A DNA stretch of 11,372 bases from the NCBI GenBank assembly GCA_000002435.2, contig AACB03000018.1. The stretch is one strand, 5' to 3'. This document shows, piece by piece, positions 211 through 11,372 of this stretch (positions within the stretch are counted from its first letter, which is position 1; the number at the start of each line of letters is the position of its first letter). The notes beneath the pieces are model-generated. The model ran no database searches. It saw nothing but the letters and a program-made list of their open reading frames with translations, and had not been told where the DNA came from. The position numbers and the translations under genes were made by a program. This DNA comes from Giardia intestinalis. Taxonomy: Eukaryota.

Positions 211-715
211 ACATGCCAGGACAGGTTGGCCCATCGACGCACCTCGTTGACCGGGGAAACAGCATGCCAGGACAGGTTGGCCCATCGACGCACCTCGTTG
301 ACCGGGGAAACAGCATGCCAGGACAGGTTGGCCCATCGACGCACCTCGTTGACCGGGGAAACAGCATGCCAGGACAGGTTGGCCCATCGACGCACCTCGT
401 TGACCGGGGAAACAGCATGCCAGGACAGGTTGGCCCATCGACGCACCTCGTTGACCGGGGAAACAGCATGCCAGGACAGGTTGGCCCATCGACACCTCGT
501 TGACCGGGGAAACAGCATGCCAGGACAGGTTGGCCCATCGACGCACCTCGTTGACCGGGGAAACAGCATGCCAGGACAGGTTGGCCCATCGACGCACCTC
601 GTTGACCGGGGAAACAGCATGCCAGGACAGGTTGGCCCATCGACGCACCTCGTTGACCGGGGAAACAGCATGCCAGGACAGGTTGGCCCATCGACGCACC
701 TCGTTGACCGGGGAA
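211..715. repeat. Homogeneous edge domain of 10 consecutive class-A monomers with the GC core. There are no B heads and no AT core variant, and the first five units are identical
   Basis: Units start at 259, 310, 361, 412 and so on, all acagcatgccaggacaggttggcccatcgacgcacc…. The single deviation is a 2-bp deletion at ~494 (cgacacctcg). The first B head appears at 716. Confidence 0.85.
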
Positions 716-2138
716 ATGGGACTCCGGGCCAGCTAGGCCCTCGACATACCTCGTTGACCGGGGAAATGGGACTCCGGGCCAGCTAGGCCCATCGACATAC
801 CTCGTTGACCGGGGAAACAGCATGCCAGGACAGGTTGGCCCATCGACGCACCTCGTTGACCGGGGAAACAGCATGCCAGGACAGGTTGGCCCATCGACGC
901 ACCTCGTTGACCGGGGAAACAGCATGCCAGGACAGGTTGGCCATCGACGCACCTCGTTGACCGGGGAAATGGGACTCCGGGCCAGCTAGGCCCATCGACA
1001 TACCTCGTTGACCGGGGAAATGGGACTCCGGGCCAGCTAGGCCCATCGACGCACCTCGTTGACCGGGGAAACAGCATGCCAGGACAGGTTGGCCCATCGA
1101 CACCTCGTTGACCGGGGAAACAGCATGCCAGGACAGGTTGGCCCATCGACGCACCTCGTTGACCGGGGAAACAGCATGCCAGGACAGGTGGCCCATCGAC
1201 ATACCTCGTTGACCGGGGAAACAGCATGCCAGGACAGGTTGGCCCATCGACGCACCCTCGTTGACCGGGGAAACAGCATGCCAGACAGGTTGGCCCATCG
1301 ACGCACCTCGTTGACCGGGAAACAGCATGCCAGGACAGGTTGGCCCATCGACATACCTCGTTGACCGGGAAACAGCATGCCAGGACAGGTTGGCCCATCG
1401 ACGCACCTCGTTGACCGGGGAAATGGGACTCCGGGCCAGCTAGGCCCATCGACATACCCTCGTTGACCGGGGAAACAGCATGCCAGGACAGGTTGGCCCA
1501 TCGACGCACCTCGTTGACCGGGGAAACAGCATGCCAGGACAGGTTGGCCCATCGACGCACCTCGTTGACCGGGGAAACAGCATGCCAGGACAGGTTGGCC
1601 CATCGACGCACCTCGTTGACCGGGGAAATGGGACTCCGGGCCAGCTAGGCCCATCGACGCACCTCGTTGACCGGGGAAATGGGACTCCGGGCCAGCTAGG
1701 CCCATCGACGCACCTCGTTGACCGGGGAAATGGGACTCCGGGCCAGCTAGGCCCATCGACAACCTCGTTGACCGGGGAACAGCATGCCAGGACAGGTTGG
1801 CCCATCGACGCACCTCGTGACCGGGGGAAACCAGCATGCCAGGACAGGTTGGCCCATCGACGCACCTCGTTGACCGGGGAAATGGGACTCCGGGCCAGCT
1901 AGGCCCATCGACATACCTCGTTGACCGGGGAAAACAGCATGCCAGGACAGGTTGGCCCATCGACGCACCTCGTTGACCGGGGAAATGGGACTCCGGGCCA
2001 GCTAGGCCCATCGACATACCTCGTTGACCGGGGAAACAGCATGCCAGGACAGGTTGGCCCATCGACGCACCTCGTTGACCGGGGGAAACAGCATGCCAGG
2101 ACAGGTTGGCCCATCGACGCACCTCGTTGACCGGGGAA

Positions 2139-2546
2139 ACAGCATGCCAGGACAGGTTGGCCCATCGACGCACCTCGTTGACCGGGGAAATGGGACTCCG
2201 GGCCAGCTAGGCCCATCGACATACCTCGTTGACCGGGGAAATGGGACTCCGGGCCAGCTAGGCCCATCGACGCACCTCGTTGACCGGGGAAATGGGACTC
2301 CGGGCCAGCTAGGCCCATCGACATACCTCGTTGACCGGGAAACAGCATGCCAGGACAGGTTGGCCCATCGACGCACCTCGTTGACCGGGGAAATGGGACT
2401 CCGGGCCAGCTAGGCCCATCGACATACCTCGTTGACCGGGGAAATGGGACTCCGGGCCAGCTAGGCCCATCGACGCACCTCGTTGACCGGGGAAATGGGA
2501 CTCCGGGCCAGCTAGGCCCATCGACATACCTCGTTGACCGGGGGAA
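2139..2546. repeat. Higher-order unit (A-b-B-b)x2, 4 monomers or 204 bp per copy. The same quartet recurs at ~2945-3150 and ~3770-3960
   Basis: Monomer typing gives 2139 A, 2190 b, 2241 B, 2292 b, 2342 A, 2393 b, 2444 B, 2495 b. Confidence 0.75.
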
Positions 2547-4643
2547 ACAGCATGCCAGGACAGGTTGGCCCATCGACGCACCTCGTTGACCGGGGAAACA
2601 GCATGCCAGGACAGGTTGGCCCATCGACGCACCTCGTTGACCGGGGAAATGGGACTCCGGGCCAGCTAGGCCCATCGACATACCTCGTTGACCGGGGAAA
2701 CAGCATGCCAGGACAGGTTGGCCCATCGACGCACCTCGTTGACCGGGGAAACAGCATGCCAGGACAGGTTGGCCCATCGACGCACCTCGTTGACCGGGGA
2801 AACAGCATGCCAGGACAGGTTGGCCCATCGACGCACCTCGTTGACCGGGGAAACAGCATGCCAGGACAGGTTGGCCCATCGACGCACCTCGTTGACCGGG
2901 GAAATGGACTCCGGGCCAGCTAGGCCCATCGACGCACCTCGTTGACCGGGGAAACAGCATGCCAGGACAGGTTGGCCCATCGACGCACCTCGTTGACCGG
3001 GGAAATGGGACTCCGGGCCAGCTAGGCCCATCGACATACCTCGTTGACCGGGGAAATGGGACTCCGGGCCAGCTAGGCCCATCGACGCACCTCGTTGACC
3101 GGGGGAAATGGGACTCCGGGCCAGCTAGGCCCATCGACATACCTCGTTGACCGGGGAAACAGCATGCCAGGACAGGTTGGCCCATCGACGCACCTCGTTG
3201 ACCGGGGAAACAGCATGCCAGGACAGGTTGGCCCATCGACGCACCTCGTTGACCGGGGGAAATGGGACTCCGGGCCAGCTAGGCCCATCGACATACCTCG
3301 TTGACCGGGGAAACAGCATGCCAGGACAGGTTGGCCCATCGACGCACCTCGTTGACCGGGGAAACAGCATGCCAGGACAGGTTGGCCCATCGACGCACCT
3401 CGTTGACCGGGGAAACAGCATGCCAGGACAGGTTGGCCCATCGACGCACCTCGTTGACCGGGGAAATGGGACTCCGGGCCAGCTAGGCCCATCGACATAC
3501 CTCGTTGACCGGGGAAACAGCATGCCAGGACAGGTTGGCCCATCGACGCACCTCGTTGACCGGGGAAACAGCATGCCAGGACAGGTTGGCCCATCGACGC
3601 ACCTCGTTGACCGGGGAAACAGCATGCCAGGACAGGTTGGCCCATCGACGCACCTCGTTGACCGGGGAAACAGCATGCCAGGACAGGTTGGCCCATCGAC
3701 GCACCTCGTTGACCGGGGGAAATGGGACTCCGGGCCAGCTAGGCCCATCGACGCACCTCGTTGACCGGGGAAACAGCATGCCAGGACAGGTTGGCCCATC
3801 GACGCACCTCGTTGACCGGGGAAATGGGACTCCGGGCCAGCTAGGCCCATCGACATACCTCGTTGACCGGGGAAATGGGACTCCGGGCCAGCTAGGCCCA
3901 TCGACGCACCTCGTTGACCGGGGAAATGGGACTCCGGGCCAGCTAGGCCCATCGACATACCTCGTTGACCGGGGAAACAGCATGCCAGGACAGGTTGGCC
4001 CATCGACGCACCTCGTTGACCGGGGAAACAGCATGCCAGGACAGGTTGGCCCATCGACGCACCTCGTTGACCGGGGAAATGGGACTCCGGGCCAGCTAGG
4101 CCCATCGACATACCTCGTTGACCGGGGAAACAGCATGCCAGGACAGGTTGGCCCATCGACGCACCTCGTTGACCGGGGAAACAGCATGCCAGGACAGGTT
4201 GGCCCATCGACGCCACCTCGTTGACCCGGGGAAACAGCATGCCAGGACAGGTTGGCCCATCGACATACCTCGTTGACCGGGGAAATGGGACTCCGGGCCA
4301 GCTAGGCCCATCGACATACCTCGTTGACCGGGGAAACAGCATGCCAGGACAGGTTGGCCCATCGACATACCTCGTTGACCGGGGAAACAGCATGCCAGGA
4401 CAGGTTGGCCCATCGACATACCTCGTTGACCGGGGGAAACAGCATGCCAGGACAGGTTGGCCCATCGACGCACCTCGTTGACCGGGGAAACAGCATGCCA
4501 GGACAGGTTGGCCCATCGACATACCTCGTTGACCGGGGGAAACAGCATGCCAGGACAGGTTGGCCCATCGACGCACCTCGTTGACCGGGGAAATGGGACT
4601 CCGGGCCAGCTAGGCCCATCGACGCACCTCGTTGACCGGGGAA

Positions 4644-5100
4644 ACAGCATGCCAGGACAGGTTGGCCCATCGACGCACCTCGTTGACCGGGGAAACAGCA
4701 TGCCAGGACAGGTTGGCCCATCGACATACCTCGTTGACCGGGGAAACAGCATGCCAGGACAGGTTGGCCCATCGACGCACCTCGTTGACCGGGGAAACAG
4801 CATGCCAGGACAGGTTGGCCCATCGACATACCTCGTTGACCGGGGAAACAGCATGCCAGGACAGGTTGGCCCATCGACGCACCTCGTTGACCGGGGAAAC
4901 AGCATGCCAGGACAGGTTGGCCCATCGACGCACCTCGTTGACCGGGGAAACAGCATGCCAGGACAGGTTGGCCCATCGACGCACCTCGTGACCGGGAAAC
5001 AGCATGCCAGGACAGGTTGGCCCATCGACGCACCTCGTTGACCGGGGAAATGGGACTCCGGGCCAGCTAGGCCCATCGACGCACCTCGTTGACCGGGGAA
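4644..5100. repeat. Copy 1 of the 9-monomer block A-a-A-a-A-A-A-A-B. Its seventh monomer (4953-5001) carries two 1-bp deletions
   Basis: The type order was read directly. ORF 4632..4991(+) has the same translation prefix as ORFs 5242..5682 and 6619..7059. Confidence 0.8.
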
Positions 5101-5253
5101 ACAGCATGCCAGGACAGGTTGGCCCATCGACGCACCTCGTTGACCGGGGAAACAGCATGCCAGGACAGGTTGGCCCATCGACGCACCTCGTTGACCGGGG
5201 AAATGGGACTCCGGGCCAGCTAGGCCCATCGACGCACCTCGTTGACCGGGGAA

Positions 5254-5712
5254 ACAGCATGCCAGGACAGGTTGGCCCATCGACGCACCTCGTTGACCGG
5301 GGAAACAGCATGCCAGGACAGGTTGGCCCATCGACATACCTCGTTGACCGGGGAAACAGCATGCCAGGACAGGTTGGCCCATCGACGCACCTCGTTGACC
5401 GGGGAAACAGCATGCCAGGACAGGTTGGCCCATCGACATACCTCGTTGACCGGGGAAACAGCATGCCAGGACAGGTTGGCCCATCGACGCACCTCGTTGA
5501 CCGGGGAAACAGCATGCCAGGACAGGTTGGCCCATCGACGCACCTCGTTGACCGGGGAAACAGCATGCCAGGACAGGTTGGCCCATCGACGCACCTCGTT
5601 GACCGGGGAAACAGCATGCCAGGACAGGTTGGCCCATCGACGCACCTCGTTGACCGGGGAAATGGGACTCCGGGCCAGCTAGGCCCATCGACGCACCTCG
5701 TTGACCGGGGAA
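5254..5712. repeat. Copy 2 of the 9-monomer block A-a-A-a-A-A-A-A-B (459 bp, indel-free)
   Basis: Monomer typing. ORF 5242..5682(+) is identical in translation to ORF 6619..7059(+), and ORF 5220..5645(-) is identical to ORF 6597..7022(-). Confidence 0.85.
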
Positions 5713-6630
5713 ACAGCATGCCAGGACAGGTTGGCCCATCGACGCACCTCGTTGACCGGGGAAACAGCATGCCAGGACAGGTTGGCCCATCGACGCACCT
5801 CGTTGACCGGGGAAATGGGACTCCGGGCCAGCTAGGCCCATCGACGCACCTCGTTGACCGGGGAAACAGCATGCCAGGACAGGTTGGCCCATCGACGCAC
5901 CTCGTTGACCGGGGAAATGGGACTCCGGGCCAGCTAGGCCCATCGACATACCTCGTTGACCGGGGAAATGGGACTCCGGGCCAGCTAGGCCCATCGACAT
6001 ACCTCGTTGACCGGGGAAATGGGACTCCGGGCCAGCTAGGCCCATCGACGCACCTCGTTGACCGGGGAAACAGCATGCCAGGACAGGTTGGCCCATCGAC
6101 GCACCTCGTTGACCGGGGAAATGGGACTCCGGGCCAGCTAGGCCCATCGACATACCTCGTTGACCGGGGAAATGGGACTCCGGGCCAGCTAGGCCCATCG
6201 ACGCACCTCGTTGACCGGGGAAACAGCATGCCAGGACAGGTTGGCCCATCGACGCACCTCGTTGACCGGGGAAACAGCATGCCAGGACAGGTTGGCCCAT
6301 CGACGCACCTCGTTGACCGGGGAAATGGGACTCCGGGCCAGCTAGGCCCATCGACGCACCTCGTTGACCGGGGAAATGGGACTCCGGGCCAGCTAGGCCC
6401 ATCGACATACCTCGTTGACCGGGGAAATGGGACTCCGGGCCAGCTAGGCCCATCGACGCACCTCGTTGACCGGGGAAACAGCATGCCAGGACAGGTTGGC
6501 CCATCGACGCACCTCGTTGACCGGGGAAATGGGACTCCGGGCCAGCTAGGCCCATCGACATACCTCGTTGACCGGGGAAATGGGACTCCGGGCCAGCTAG
6601 GCCCATCGACGCACCTCGTTGACCGGGGAA

Positions 6631-7089
6631 ACAGCATGCCAGGACAGGTTGGCCCATCGACGCACCTCGTTGACCGGGGAAACAGCATGCCAGGACAGGT
6701 TGGCCCATCGACATACCTCGTTGACCGGGGAAACAGCATGCCAGGACAGGTTGGCCCATCGACGCACCTCGTTGACCGGGGAAACAGCATGCCAGGACAG
6801 GTTGGCCCATCGACATACCTCGTTGACCGGGGAAACAGCATGCCAGGACAGGTTGGCCCATCGACGCACCTCGTTGACCGGGGAAACAGCATGCCAGGAC
6901 AGGTTGGCCCATCGACGCACCTCGTTGACCGGGGAAACAGCATGCCAGGACAGGTTGGCCCATCGACGCACCTCGTTGACCGGGGAAACAGCATGCCAGG
7001 ACAGGTTGGCCCATCGACGCACCTCGTTGACCGGGGAAATGGGACTCCGGGCCAGCTAGGCCCATCGACGCACCTCGTTGACCGGGGAA
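6631..7089. repeat. Copy 3 of the 9-monomer block, exactly 1377 bp (27 monomers) downstream of copy 2. The flanking A-x-B triplets are also conserved, giving a 15-monomer superblock
   Basis: The identical ORF translations on both strands at a +1377 offset are described under copy 2. Flanking monomers are u97-99 A-A-B versus u124-126 A-b-B upstream and u109-111 A-A-B versus u136-138 A-b-B downstream. Confidence 0.85.
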
Positions 7090-7702
7090 ACAGCATGCCA
7101 GGACAGGTTGGCCCATCGACGCACCTCGTTGACCGGGGAAATGGGACTCCGGGCCAGCTAGGCCCATCGACATACCTCGTTGACCGGGGGAAATGGGACT
7201 CCGGGCCAGCTAGGCCCATCGACGCACCTCGTTGACCGGGGAAACAGCATGCCAGGACAGGTTGGCCCATCGACGCACCTCGTTGACCGGGGAAATGGGA
7301 CTCCGGGCCAGCTAGGCCCATCGACATACCTCGTTGACCGGGGAAATGGGACTCCGGGCCAGCTAGGCCCATCGACGCACCTCGTTGACCGGGGAAACAG
7401 CATGCCAGGACAGGTTGGCCCATCGACGCACCTCGTTGACCGGGGAAATGGGACTCCGGGCCAGCTAGGCCCATCGACATACCTCGTTGACCGGGGAAAT
7501 GGGACTCCGGGCCAGCTAGGCCCATCGACGCACCTCGTTGACCGGGGAAACAGCATGCCAGGACAGGTTGGCCCATCGACGCACCTCGTTGACCGGGGAA
7601 ATGGGACTCCGGGCCAGCTAGGCCCATCGACATACCTCGTTGACCGGGGAAATGGGACTCCGGGCCAGCTAGGCCCATCGACGCACCTCGTTGACCGGGG
7701 AA
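7090..7702. repeat. (A-b-B)x4 three-monomer higher-order repeat, 153 bp per copy
   Basis: Units start at 7090 A, 7141 b (+1 g in its G-run), 7193 B, 7244 A, 7295 b, 7346 B, 7397 A, 7448 b, 7499 B, 7550 A, 7601 b, 7652 B. ORF 7180..8280(+) shows the corresponding GTPGQLGPSTH / SMPGQVGPSTH / GTPGQLGPSTY cycle. Confidence 0.85.
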
Positions 7703-8299
7703 ATGGGACTCCGGGCCAGCTAGGCCCATCGACGCACCTCGTTGACCGGGGAAACAGCATGCCAGGACAGGTTGGCCCATCGACGCACCTCGTTGACCGG
7801 GGAAACAGCATGCCAGGACAGGTTGGCCCATCGACGCACCTCGTTGACCGGGGAAATGGGACTCCGGGCCAGCTAGGCCCATCGACGCACCTCGTTGACC
7901 GGGGAAATGGGACTCCGGGCCAGCTAGGCCCATCGACATACCTCGTTGACCGGGGAAATGGGACTCCGGGCCAGCTAGGCCCATCGACGCACCTCGTTGA
8001 CCGGGGAAACAGCATGCCAGGACAGGTTGGCCCATCGACGCACCTCGTTGACCGGGGAAATGGGACTCCGGGCCAGCTAGGCCCATCGACATACCTCGTT
8101 GACCGGGGAAATGGGACTCCGGGCCAGCTAGGCCCATCGACGCACCTCGTTGACCGGGGAAACAGCATGCCAGGACAGGTTGGCCCATCGACGCACCTCG
8201 TTGACCGGGGAAACAGCATGCCAGGACAGGTGGCCCATCGACGCACCTCGTTGACCGGGAATGGGATCCGGGCCAGCTAGGCCCATCGACATCCTCGTT

Positions 8300-11200
8300 G
8301 ACCGGGGAAATGGGACTCCGGGCCAGCTAGGCCCATCGACGCACCTCGTTGACCGGGGAAACAGCATGCCAGGAAGGTTGGCCCATCGACGCACCTCGTT
8401 GACCGGGGAAACAGCATGCCAGGACAGGTTGGCCCATCGACGCACCTCGTTGACCGGGGAAATGGGACTCCGGGCCAGCTAGGCCCATCGACGCACCTCG
8501 TTGACCGGGGAAACAGCATGCCAGGACAGGTTGGCCCATCGACGCACCTCGTGACCGGGGAAACAGCATGCCAGGACAGGTTGGCCCATCGACGCACCTC
8601 GTTGACCGGGGGAAACAGCATGCCAGGACAGGTTGGCCCATCGACGCACCTCGTTGACCGGGGAAATGGGACTCCGGGCCAGCTAGGCCCATCGACGCAC
8701 CTCGTTGACCGGGGAACAGCATGCCAGGACAGGTTGGCCCATCGACGCACCTCGTTGACCGGGGAAACAGCATGCCAGGACAGGTTGGCCCATCGACGCA
8801 CCTCGTTGACCGGGGAAATGGGACTCCGGGCCAGCTAGGCCCATCGACGCACCTCGTTGACCGGGGAAACAGCATGCCAGGACAGGTTGGCCCATCGACG
8901 CACCTCGTTGACCGGGGAAACAGCATGCCAGGACAGGTTGGCCCATCGACGCACCTCGTTGACCGGGGAAATGGGACTCCGGGCCAGCTAGGCCCATCGA
9001 CGCACCTCGTTGACCGGGGAAATGGGACTCCGGACAGGTTGGCCCATCGACGCACCTCGTTGACCGGGGAAACAGCATGCCAGGACAGGTTGGCCCATCG
9101 ACGCACCTCGTTGACCGGGGAAATGGGACTCCGGGCCAGCTAGGCCCATCGACACCTCGTTGACCGGGGAAACAGCATGCCAGGACAGGTTGGCCCATCG
9201 ACGCACCTCGTTGACCGGGGAAACAGCATGCCAGGACAGGTTGGCCCATCGACGCACCTCGTTGACCGGGGAAACAGCATGCCAGGACAGGTTGGCCCAT
9301 CGACGCACCTCGTTGACCGGGGAAACAGCATGCCAGGACAGGTTGGCCCATCGACGCACCTCGTTGACCGGGGAAACAGCATGCCAGGACAGGTTGGCCC
9401 ATCGACGCACCTCGTTGACCGGGGAAACAGCATGCCAGGACAGGTTGGCCCATCGACGCACCTCGTTGACCGGGGAAATGGGACTCCGGGCCAGCTAGGC
9501 CCATCGACGCACCTCGTTGACCGGGGAAACAGCATGCCAGGACAGGTTGGCCCATCGACGCACCTCGTTGACCGGGGAAACAGCATGCCAGGACAGGTTG
9601 GCCCATCGACGCACCTCGTTGACCGGGGAAACAGCATGCCAGGACAGGTTGGCCCATCGACGCACCTCGTTGACCGGGGAAACAGCATGCCAGGACAGGT
9701 TGGCCCATCGACGCACCTCGTTGACCGGGGAAATGGGACTCCGGGCCAGCTAGGCCCATCGACGCACCTCGTTGACCGGGGAAACAGCATGCCAGGACAG
9801 GTTGGCCCATCGACGCACCTCGTTGACCGGGGAAACAGCATGCCAGGACAGGTTGGCCCATCGACGCACCTCGTTGACCGGGGAAATGGGACTCCGGCAG
9901 CTAGGCCCATCGACGCACCTCGTTGACCGGGGAAATGGGACTCCGGGCCAGCTAGGCCCATCGACGCACCTCGTTGACCGGGGAAATGGGACTCCGGGCA
10001 GCTAGGCCCATCGACGCACCTCGTTGACCGGGGAAATGCATGCCGGCAGCTAGGCCCATCGACGCACCTCGTTGACCGGGGAAATGGACTCCGGGCCAGC
10101 TAGGCCCATCGACGCACCTCGTTGACCGGGGAAACAGCATGCCAGGACAGGTTGGCCCATCGACGCACCTCGTTGACCGGGGAAATGGGACTCCGGGCCA
10201 GCTAGGCCCATCGACGCACCTCGTTGACCGGGGAAATGGGACTCCGGGCCAGCTAGGCCCATCGACACCTCGTTGACCGGGGAAATGGGACCCGGGCCAG
10301 CTAGGCCCATCGACGCACCTCGTTGACCGGGGAAACAGCATGCCAGGACAGGTTGGCCCATCGACGCACCTCGTTGACCGGGGAAACAGCATGCCAGGAG
10401 GTTGGCCCATCGACGCACCTCGTTGACCGGGGAAACAGCATGCCAGGACAGGTTGGCCCATCGACGCACCTCGTTGACCGGGGAAATGGGACTCCGGGCC
10501 AGCTAGGCCCATCGACGCACCTCGTTGACCGGGGAAACAGCATGCCAGGACAGGTTGGCCCATCGACGCACCTCGTTGACCGGGGAAACAGCATGCCAGG
10601 ACAGGTTGGCCCATCGACGCACCTCGTTGACCGGGGAAACAGCATGCCAGGACAGGTTGGCCCATCGACGCACCTCGTTGACCGGGGAAATGGACTCCGG
10701 ACCAGCTAGGCCCATCGACGCACCTCGTTGACCGGGGAAATGGGACCCGGGCCAGCTAGGCCCATCGACGCACCTCGTTGACCGGGGAAATGGGACTCCG
10801 GGCCAGCTAGGCCCATCGACGCACCTCGTTGACCGGGGAAACAGCATGCCAGGACAGGTTGGCCCATCGACGCACCTCGTTGACCGGGGAAACAGCATGC
10901 CAGGACAGGTTGGCCCATCGACGCACCTCGTTGACCGGGGAAACAGCATGCCAGGACAGGTTGGCCCATCGACGCACCTCGTTGACCGGGGAAACAGCAG
11001 CCAGGACAGGTTGGCCCATCGACGCACCTCGTTGACCGGGGAAACAGCATGCCAGGACAGGTTGGCCCATCGACGCACCTCGTTGACCGGGGAAAAGCAT
11101 CCGGACAGCTAGGCCCATCGACGCACCTCGTTGACCGGGGAAACAGCATGCCAGGACAGGTTGGCCCATCGACGCACCTCGTTGACCGGGGAAATGGGAC

Positions 11201-11372
11201 TCCGGACAGCTAGGCCCATCGACACCTCGTTGACCGGGGAAATGGGACTCCGGGCCAGCTAGGCCCATCGACGCACCTCGTTGACCGGGAAACAGCATGC
11301 CAGGACAGGTTGGCCCATCGACGCACCTCGTTGACCGGGGAAATGGGACTCCGGCCAGCTAGGCCCATCGAC
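8300..11372. repeat. 3' domain lacking the AT core variant entirely. It is indel-rich and contains chimeric A/B monomers
   Basis: No cgacatacc occurs after ~8294, and every core reads cgacgcacc or the 2-bp deleted form. Chimeric heads are at 9022-9071 (atgggactccgg+acaggtt), ~10037-10055 (atgcatgccggcagcta), ~11096-11112 (aagcatccggacagcta) and ~11201-11215 (atgggactccggacagcta). Confidence 0.8.

Follow-up and report, generated by a model that had tools for sequence, protein, structure and literature searches.

Indel-rich flanks around a clean core in a coding 51-bp repeat array of a Giardia NEK kinase gene: a probable signature of uneven long-read consensus quality

The closest described relatives of the array analyzed here are the Giardia NEK kinases EFO64379.1 (P15, assemblage E), KWX12190.1 and ESU43930.1 (both assemblage B). 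The window, an 11,372-nucleotide stretch of Giardia intestinalis DNA, shares with the genes encoding these proteins the upstream coding sequence, the 17-residue repeat unit (70-74% identical over the repeats), the same two classes of that unit, the strand and the reading frame. In contrast, the unit is present in at least 219 copies in the window, versus 3, 6 and 7 in this group of proteins, the frame is interrupted approximately 60 times, and the window does not include the kinase domain.

The edges of satellite arrays are older and more diverged, and satellites with a homogenized core, such as centromeric alpha-satellite, resemble the window in presenting a uniform center with more variants at the edges. 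The edge variants of the window, however, are nearly all 1-2 bp indels that are not inherited by duplicated blocks, and they affect a coding repeat inside a kinase gene rather than a non-coding satellite. A different likeness is to long-read (PacBio CLR, ONT or 454-type) consensus errors, in which indels also far outnumber substitutions, insertions fall in homopolymers, reading frames are broken and error density varies along the contig, although about half of the deletions observed here lie outside homopolymers and the transitions from clean to indel-rich sequence are abrupt. In the PacBio assembly of Giardia WB, homopolymer frameshifts truncated genes, and 33 small, repeat-enriched contigs of less than 33 kb were built out of reads with no mapping to the chromosomes (PMC7000408).

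The 51-bp array and its NEK kinase relatives

Comparison with orthologues, repeat detection and a census of monomers divide the window into two parts:
1-211, + strand: unique coding sequence for the C-terminal region of a Giardia NEK kinase, located just 5' of the repeats (orthologue alignment)
212-11372, + strand: 51-bp tandem array of at least 219 units (TRF, monomer census and protein search)

Run on the whole window, TRF returned a single 51-bp array (212-11343, 218.9 copies), which extends past the right end of the window. Monomers were delimited by a cut after each ...CCTCGTTGACC, yielding 218 whole units. Most of these (169/218) are 51 bp long, and all 169 are identical to one of four canonical types (A/GC, 97; B/GC, 37; B/AT, 26; A/AT, 9), while every one of the remaining 49 is a length variant of 47-53 bp. 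No AT-type (Tyr-coding) monomer occurs 3' of position 8303, and a higher-order ABb x4 run is found at 7084-7696.

The + strand frame of the array encodes a 17-residue repeat (PGQVGPSTHLVDRGNSM) with the sequence NSMPGQVGPSTHLVDRG in class A and NGTPGQLGPST[H/Y]LVDRG in class B. As read from the sequence, 7 of the 11 class-defining differences fall in third codon positions of this frame. A protein search with the + frame matched only the Giardia NEK kinases P0001 and P0002 (E=2e-34 and 1.6e-13), and the top BLASTP alignments of the repeat (PGQ.GPS.HLVDRGN..) to NEK kinases showed 69-74% identity over 94-100 residues (E=3e-42). The C-terminal NEK repeats are read in frame in assemblage B proteins, where the copy number varies between isolates (3 vs 7), and both repeat classes (NSM.../NG[TG]...) are present in proteins of assemblages B and E. 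The kinase domain of the orthologues is encoded about 2.4 kb upstream, and the window begins 211 bp before the repeats. The earlier note had overlooked that the array is coding, as the C-terminus of a Giardia NEK kinase, and it is this that allows the origin of its indels to be addressed without sequencing reads.

Other searches returned little. Pfam scans of three open frames revealed no significant family, and a 222-residue C-terminal query gave, contrary to expectation, no match in a protein search. Searching with full-length P0001 recovered only P0001 and P0002, with no assemblage A-like orthologue in the protein collection. Exact 32-mer searches with the monomer found no match in prokaryotic genome, viral or metagenome contigs, a protein-guided metagenome scan detected no relative, no independent copy of the array being recovered, and a literature search for the repeat peptide or DNA produced only chance primer matches.

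Distribution and spectrum of the indels

The array comprises three domains of contrasting indel density, and the core contains a single variant:
212-5001, + strand: left indel-rich domain, with 27 variant monomers and 29 indel events (15 deletions, 14 insertions)
5002-8230, + strand: near indel-free core, with 62 whole monomers, one of them variant
8231-11372, + strand: right indel-rich domain, with 21 variant monomers and the last partial one (29 deletions, 1 insertion)
7186-7190, + strand: sole core variant, G4>G5, shifting the reading frame (monomer census)

Tallied by monomer index (left, monomers 0-93, 253-5043; core, 94-155, 5044-8206; right, 156-217, 8207-11336), length variants make up 1/62 monomers in the core compared to 48/156 outside it (Fisher p=2e-7), as the earlier note had proposed in describing a clean core between indel-rich flanks. 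A permutation scan for any stretch of 62 monomers with at most one variant gave a scan-corrected p=5e-6, and a clean run of at least 42 monomers has p=2.5e-4. The core coordinates given in that note (5002-8230) are accurate to within a few bases by direct reading of the flanking errors: those on the left end with TT>T at about 4988 and G4>G3 at 4994-4996, and those on the right begin with TT>T at about 8231 and continue into the final partial monomer, which also carries a deletion. The transitions are step-like, with no significant gradient within either flank. Indels number 3 in 211 bp at the unique left end and, within the array, about 6 per kb to the left of the core, 0.3 per kb inside it and about 9-10 per kb to its right.

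Events were scored against a consensus allowing either class at the 11 class-defining sites. The indels of the array are deletions of one base (38 events) or two bases (6) and insertions of one base (16). A single substitution was scored, the non-class substitutions numbering 0 in the left flank and 1 in the right. The predominance of indels over substitutions claimed in the earlier note thus holds (60 events against one at a non-class site), and such a ratio has P=2e-16 even if the true ratio were 1:1. That most indels lie in the G4 run does not hold: this run accounts for 16/60, which is 3-4 times its expected share (p=8e-5) and falls short of a majority. Each of the 16 insertions lengthens a homopolymer (p=1e-6), whereas among one-base deletions 21/35 are within runs (p=0.18), and six other deletions remove 2 bp. 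The 2-bp deletion GACGCACC>GACACC occurs five times and could represent either a systematic error or a genuine variant monomer. Homopolymer-length changes constitute 25/29 events in the left flank, compared to approximately 40% (11/27) in the right, and the split between insertions and deletions also differs (left, 14/15; right, 1/29; p=6e-5). Sequences spanning variants are exemplified by CCTCGTTGACCGGGAAAC, CCGGGGGAAA and CATCGACACCTCG.

All 60 array indels are of 1-2 bp and each breaks the + frame. Long open + frames (743 and 366 residues) are restricted to the core, where the corresponding ORFs (5004-7235 and 7180-8280) are separated solely by the G5 variant. A frameshift within the same NEK repeat (GGG>GG) is present in the 454 assembly of P15.

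The unique sequence 5' of the array is frameshifted as well. Its DNA alignment with P15 (L001) and BAH15c1 (L002) contains three single-base gaps, all in the window sequence only, and these correspond to 1-bp deletions relative to both orthologues at 76/77, 157/158 and about 211/212. Both orthologues keep one frame across this region, whereas the translation of the flank matches the orthologous proteins piecewise, moving through frames 3, 2, 1 and 3. Nucleotide identity over about 200 bp is 84% to P15 (assemblage E) and 75% to BAH15c1 (assemblage B), and indels are 45 times as dense in this unique flank as in the core (p=9e-4).

Two further features of the indel-rich domains were identified:
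2540-4226, + strand: 17-monomer (869-bp) block in two overlapping copies, 2540-3408 and 3358-4226 (sequence comparison)
9016-9065, 10030-10077, 10684-10733, 11089-11136 and 11188-11235, + strand: five fine-scale A/B mosaic monomers in the right domain

The two 869-bp copies show no mismatches and differ by six 1-bp indels, each present in one copy only and none shared. The mosaics are limited to indel-bearing monomers (5/49 vs 0/169, p=5e-4); all of those in the right domain co-occur with deletions, and the left domain has none.

Consensus quality and competing accounts of the domain pattern

Judged from the sequence, the domain pattern very probably reflects uneven long-read consensus quality over a coding NEK repeat rather than biology. 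The window would cover the 3' end of a NEK kinase gene from Giardia in which the C-terminal 17-residue (51 bp) repeat has grown to at least 219 copies, and the true array would most likely be an uninterrupted in-frame run of the four exact monomer types, like the core. The 1-2 bp indels would then be residual long-read consensus errors, with miscounted homopolymers in the left flank and deletions in the right one, and the mixed A/B calls on the right may stem from disagreement among reads in different registers or from different alleles. Poor read support would be expected to concentrate such errors, the core representing well-supported consensus, and a short repeat-dominated contig or patch with coverage thinning toward its ends would yield the observed densities. 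The pattern, the coding frame, the frameshifts against the orthologues and the spectrum of errors are demonstrated by the sequence; from them we infer that the contrast between domains may be due to coverage or read support, and that the window is likely to come from a contig end or a small contig. The sharp difference in insertion/deletion direction between the two flanks could arise from an altered read set or a different degree of polishing, and a common mutational process does not obviously account for it. Since simple coverage decay predicts a gradient, the step-like boundaries require a further assumption, either discrete read ends or a segment that was patched or polished. A smooth coverage gradient finds no support, given the absence of any trend inside either flank, and neither does selective short-read polishing of a more mappable core, as unique class-words (2-6 monomers) are rarer in the core than in the left flank.

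The earlier note had offered two readings of the pattern without deciding between them. Regional differences in consensus quality are favored by the indel ratio, the broken frame, the frameshifts in the unique flank, the private indels of the duplication, the homopolymer insertions and the mosaics, whereas a recently homogenized core with older flanks fares poorly, given flanks with essentially no substitutions or inherited variants. The latter account, in which the indels are real, the core recently expanded and homogenized and the flanks the older, mutated edges of the array, is consistent with the strongly non-random, U-shaped distribution of variants and with the ABb x4 run in the core, which suggests local amplification. 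It nevertheless predicts substitutions at the edges, where one is seen against 60 indels, and a perfect 869-bp duplication within the left domain whose copies share no indel is difficult to reconcile with aged sequence. Moreover, the unique flank, which lies outside array homogenization, has the highest indel density, and every indel breaks a frame kept in the assemblage B and E orthologues, leaving this account exceedingly improbable. Equally improbable is a decaying second copy, that is, a pseudogene fragment (NEK 3' end plus array) in which frameshifts are tolerated and short homopolymers slip unusually fast. Frameshifts in unique and repeated parts alike, and the failure to find an assemblage A-like kinase orthologue in the protein collection, would fit such a fragment, but decay adds substitutions too, and none is seen in the array (one, at a non-class site, by another count). 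A pseudogene would also leave unexplained the 3.2-kb undamaged stretch, the confinement of mosaics to one end and the opposite insertion/deletion bias of the flanks.

Combining real indels with loss of function, a giant pseudogenized 51-bp array whose edges decayed almost purely by 1-2 bp slippage, and whose 3.2-kb core was recently regenerated by unequal exchange, is very unlikely; if true, it would point to a mutation spectrum in Giardia repeats with an extraordinary bias toward indels. Alternatively, an artefact might have arisen from real heterogeneity and not from low depth, if the order of monomers differs between the four genome copies of a tetraploid cell or from cell to cell: the consensus would be clean where copies agree and garbled where reads of differing order pile up. 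The B-A-B mosaics of a few bases with co-located deletions in the right domain only, the loss of AT-type monomers after 8303, as expected from a majority-rule consensus of mixed registers, and the copy number of 3 vs 7 between assemblage B isolates all agree with this scenario. Against it, the left domain has no mosaics and displays a pure homopolymer +/-1 spectrum, and deletions occur in the unique flank too. The mosaic-free left domain and the flank deletions thus indicate that heterogeneity is not the whole story, and as an explanation we regard it as very unlikely.

Implications for annotation and for the repeat tail

If consensus quality is indeed responsible, the domain pattern serves mainly as a quality flag, as anyone annotating this sequence would report a disrupted gene or numerous spurious ORFs on the two strands. 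The true sequence is probably that seen in the clean core, where a NEK kinase tail of 17-residue repeats is read in frame. With at least 219 copies (no fewer than 3,700 residues), compared to 3-7 in other Giardia lineages, this tail would, if confirmed, constitute a striking lineage-specific expansion of a coding repeat, and the locus would likely be collapsed or broken in short-read, Sanger and 454 assemblies. The coding expansion to about 219 copies is a more interesting by-product of the analysis than the domain pattern itself.

Coding on the minus strand was also considered and rejected. One of the minus frames is interrupted by a stop in B units, and in the other two, 5-8 residues differ between the classes and no database relatives were found, while NEK proteins are matched by the + frame. 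On the minus strand, two ORFs exceeding 1000 residues are open by accident.

Length variation across the 51-bp array

Tandem Repeats Finder identified a single 51-bp array at 212-11343 (218.9 copies, 89% matches), preceded by AT-rich, unique sequence (bases 1-211) and reaching the window's last base. Cutting after each ...CCTCGTTGACC yielded 218 whole monomers, 169 of which are 51 bp long and exactly identical to one of four sequences, as defined by a first block (CAGCATGCCAGGACAGGTTGG, termed A, or TGGGACTCCGGGCCAGCTAGG, termed B) and a second block (GC or AT): 97 A/GC, 37 B/GC, 26 B/AT and 9 A/AT. No private substitutions were found among these 169 full-length monomers, and the remaining 49 of the 218 are all length variants of 47-53 bp, distributed as follows:

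253-5043, left domain: 27 length variants in 94 monomers
5044-8206, core: 1 length variant in 62 monomers, a five-G run (G5) in place of the four-G run (G4) at 7186-7190
8207-11336, right domain: 21 length variants in 62 monomers

The incomplete final unit carries one further deletion. The difference between the core (1/62) and the monomers outside it (48/156) is far beyond chance (Fisher p=2e-7), also when assessed by a permutation scan in which the scanned window was free to sit anywhere (p=5e-6) or by the clean run of 42 monomers (p=2.5e-4). Direct reading places the final left-side errors at ~4988 (TT>T) and 4994-4996 (G4>G3), and the earliest right-side error at ~8231 (TT>T). The near indel-free core at 5002-8230 between indel-rich flanks, as described in the earlier note, is therefore confirmed with three corrections. 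Indel density per kb is 14 in the unique left end, ~6 in the left array, 0.3 in the core and ~9-10 on the right, with no trend with position inside either flank and abrupt transitions between clean and error-rich sequence.

When each monomer was aligned to a consensus in which both classes were allowed at the 11 class-defining sites, the events comprised 38 deletions of one base and 6 of two bases, 16 one-base insertions and 1 substitution, so that indels do far outnumber substitutions (60 vs 1). The G4 run is enriched for these events (p=8e-5), yet takes 16 of 60, short of a majority. All 16 insertions lengthen a pre-existing run (p=1e-6). The spectra of the two flanks differ in direction (p=6e-5): 15 deletions and 14 insertions on the left, where 25 of 29 are homopolymer-length changes, against 29 deletions and 1 insertion on the right, where under half fall in homopolymers. 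Five right-domain monomers are fine-scale A/B mosaics that switch state over a few bases, and all five also carry deletions, compared to 0 mosaics among the 169 clean monomers (p=5e-4).

The order of monomer classes presents higher-order structure:

2540-3408 and 3358-4226, left domain: two copies of a 17-monomer block (869 bp), overlapping by one unit
7084-7696, core: three-monomer unit ABb (A then B/GC-type pairs), repeated four times

The two 869-bp copies show 0 mismatches and six 1-bp indels, none of them common to both.

A repeat-bearing NEK kinase tail

Across all monomer types, three of the six reading frames remain open. The plus-strand unit reads GGA AAC AGC ATG CCA GGA CAG GTT GGC CCA TCG ACG CAC CTC GTT GAC CGG, and inspection of the sequence places 7 of the 11 A/B differences at third codon positions of this frame, with four synonymous changes (AAC/AAT, CCA/CCG, GGA/GGC and ACG/ACA). 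The 743-residue core translation matched only two of 5.8 billion clustered proteins, both Giardia NEK kinases: EFO64379.1 (isolate P15, assemblage E; E=2e-34) and KWX12190.1 (assemblage B; E=1.6e-13). The matched region consists of C-terminal 17-residue repeats, with 69-74% identity over ~100 residues in the top alignments. These repeats number 6 in P15, 3 in BAH15c1 and 7 in ESU43930.1, with a few residues between the last repeat and the stop. Both repeat classes, NSMPGQ[V/M]... and NG[T/G]PGQ[L/V]..., occur in assemblage B and E proteins, and therefore look older than the assemblage split.

Bases 1-211 align with the coding sequence immediately upstream of the repeats (84% identity to P15, 75% to assemblage B), which identifies the window as the 3' end of a Giardia NEK kinase gene. 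By sequence identity its lineage is closer to assemblage E than it is to assemblage B, and could reasonably be guessed to be assemblage A. The searches returned assemblage E and B proteins only; among the 5.8 billion clustered proteins, none from assemblage A (WB or DH) came up as an orthologue, possibly because the gene lacks annotation or is broken in those assemblies, for which the array may be responsible. None of the collections searched yielded another copy of the array or flank from this lineage. In the first 3000 bases of both contigs, P15 and BAH15c1, at least four protein kinase genes are arranged head to tail, and the NEK kinase carrying the repeat is the last of them.

On the plus strand, 212-11372 holds at least 219 copies of the 17-residue repeat (at least 3,700 residues if in frame). 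Elsewhere there are 3-7 copies, so that either the repeat has expanded greatly in this lineage or older assemblies have collapsed it. This kinase tail, a by-product of the analysis, is of more interest than the posed pattern of clean core and indel-rich flanks, which is of low interest. The opposite strand presents two further open frames:

4096-8188, minus strand: two ORFs of 1025 and 1192 residues, spanning the clean core

These are open purely for want of stop codons in the corresponding frames of the repeat; no homologues of either were found, and as genes they would be spurious calls.

Origin of the clean core and indel-rich flanks

All array indels are of 1 or 2 bp, and each breaks the reading frame kept in related genomes; uninterrupted plus-strand frames of 743 and then 366 codons are found in the core only. 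The unique flank provides an independent test, because it lies beyond the reach of array homogenisation. Relative to P15 and BAH15c1, whose orthologues have one common frame over this segment, single bases are missing between 76/77, between 157/158 and at ~211/212, such that the translation of 1-211 fits the orthologues in frame 3, 2 and 1 successively before the repeats return to frame 3. These three frameshifts in 211 bp are the window's highest density, 45x that of the core (p=9e-4).

Of the two readings previously proposed, a recently homogenised core with older flanks carrying real indels is contradicted by these data: substitutions are lacking, the indels are private to each copy of the duplicated block, and frameshifts extend into the unique flank. 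Biological divergence does not give a spectrum of 60 indels for 1 substitution (P=2e-16 even at a true 1:1), and the indels of the 869-bp blocks either are younger than the duplication, with no accompanying substitution, or are not real. A decaying pseudogene copy would not fit, since it would also gain substitutions and would not spare 3.2 kb. Allelic heterogeneity could contribute on the right, but leaves the left flank and the unique sequence unexplained. The alternative reading, regional consensus quality, is preferred on the indel excess, broken frame, flank frameshifts, homopolymer insertions, mosaics and flank-specific indel bias. The A/B mosaics are the expected consensus output where reads from A and B units stack at one place, and the opposite indel bias of the flanks is easily accommodated by different read sets or polishing states and hard to reconcile with one mutational process. 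The pattern is thus very probably explained by a long-read assembly whose consensus accuracy varies along this coding tandem repeat; the clean core with error-rich flanks is real in the sequence but, on this reading, not a biological feature, and the true repeat sequence is probably that of the core.

Read support may have been thin toward both ends of a small contig or patch, which would leave the ends worst and the middle best. Rather than smooth decay, the abruptness of the boundaries points to discrete read ends or to a stretch that was polished differently. In the right domain, the mosaics may reflect reads placed in conflicting registers or derived from different alleles of a tetraploid organism, and the disappearance of AT-type monomers (Tyr-coding, ...GACATACC...) is in keeping with this: of the first 156 units 43 are of this type, with none beyond 8303, and 8304-11372 contains A/GC and B/GC units only. 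This loss could be either a real array domain or a majority-rule effect of mixed read pile-up. A core that was more mappable and so selectively polished with short reads was also considered; this is unsupported, as unique class-words (2-6 monomers) occur less often there than in the left flank.

Such errors have precedent in Giardia. In the WB PacBio assembly, genes were truncated through homopolymer frameshifts, which were corrected only with at least 10 Illumina reads in support, and 33 small, repeat-enriched contigs (<33 kb) were built from reads unmapped to chromosome scaffolds (PMC7000408). By description, these resemble the window, with its 211 bp of unique sequence and 11 kb array. A likeness is also seen in the P15 contig, a 454-based assembly and hence from a homopolymer-sensitive platform, which carries a homopolymer-length frameshift within the same NEK repeat:

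ACVC01000096.1 (P15), ~5685-5700: GGG>GG in one repeat unit, GGAAACGGACACC in place of GGAAACGGGACACC

As a result, the deposited EFO64379.1 runs out of frame (HRARWVRPRTSLIGETAC...VVSDKSPHFNHMI); read in frame, it would end ...PGQVGCF*, and an error of sequencing or annotation in the public record is the probable cause.

A 2-bp deletion, CGACGCACC>CGACACC, is shared by five monomers that lie apart from one another in both flanks (~493, 1101, 9153, 10266 and 11224); it is either a consensus error made systematically at this motif or the mark of a rare variant unit that genuinely exists.
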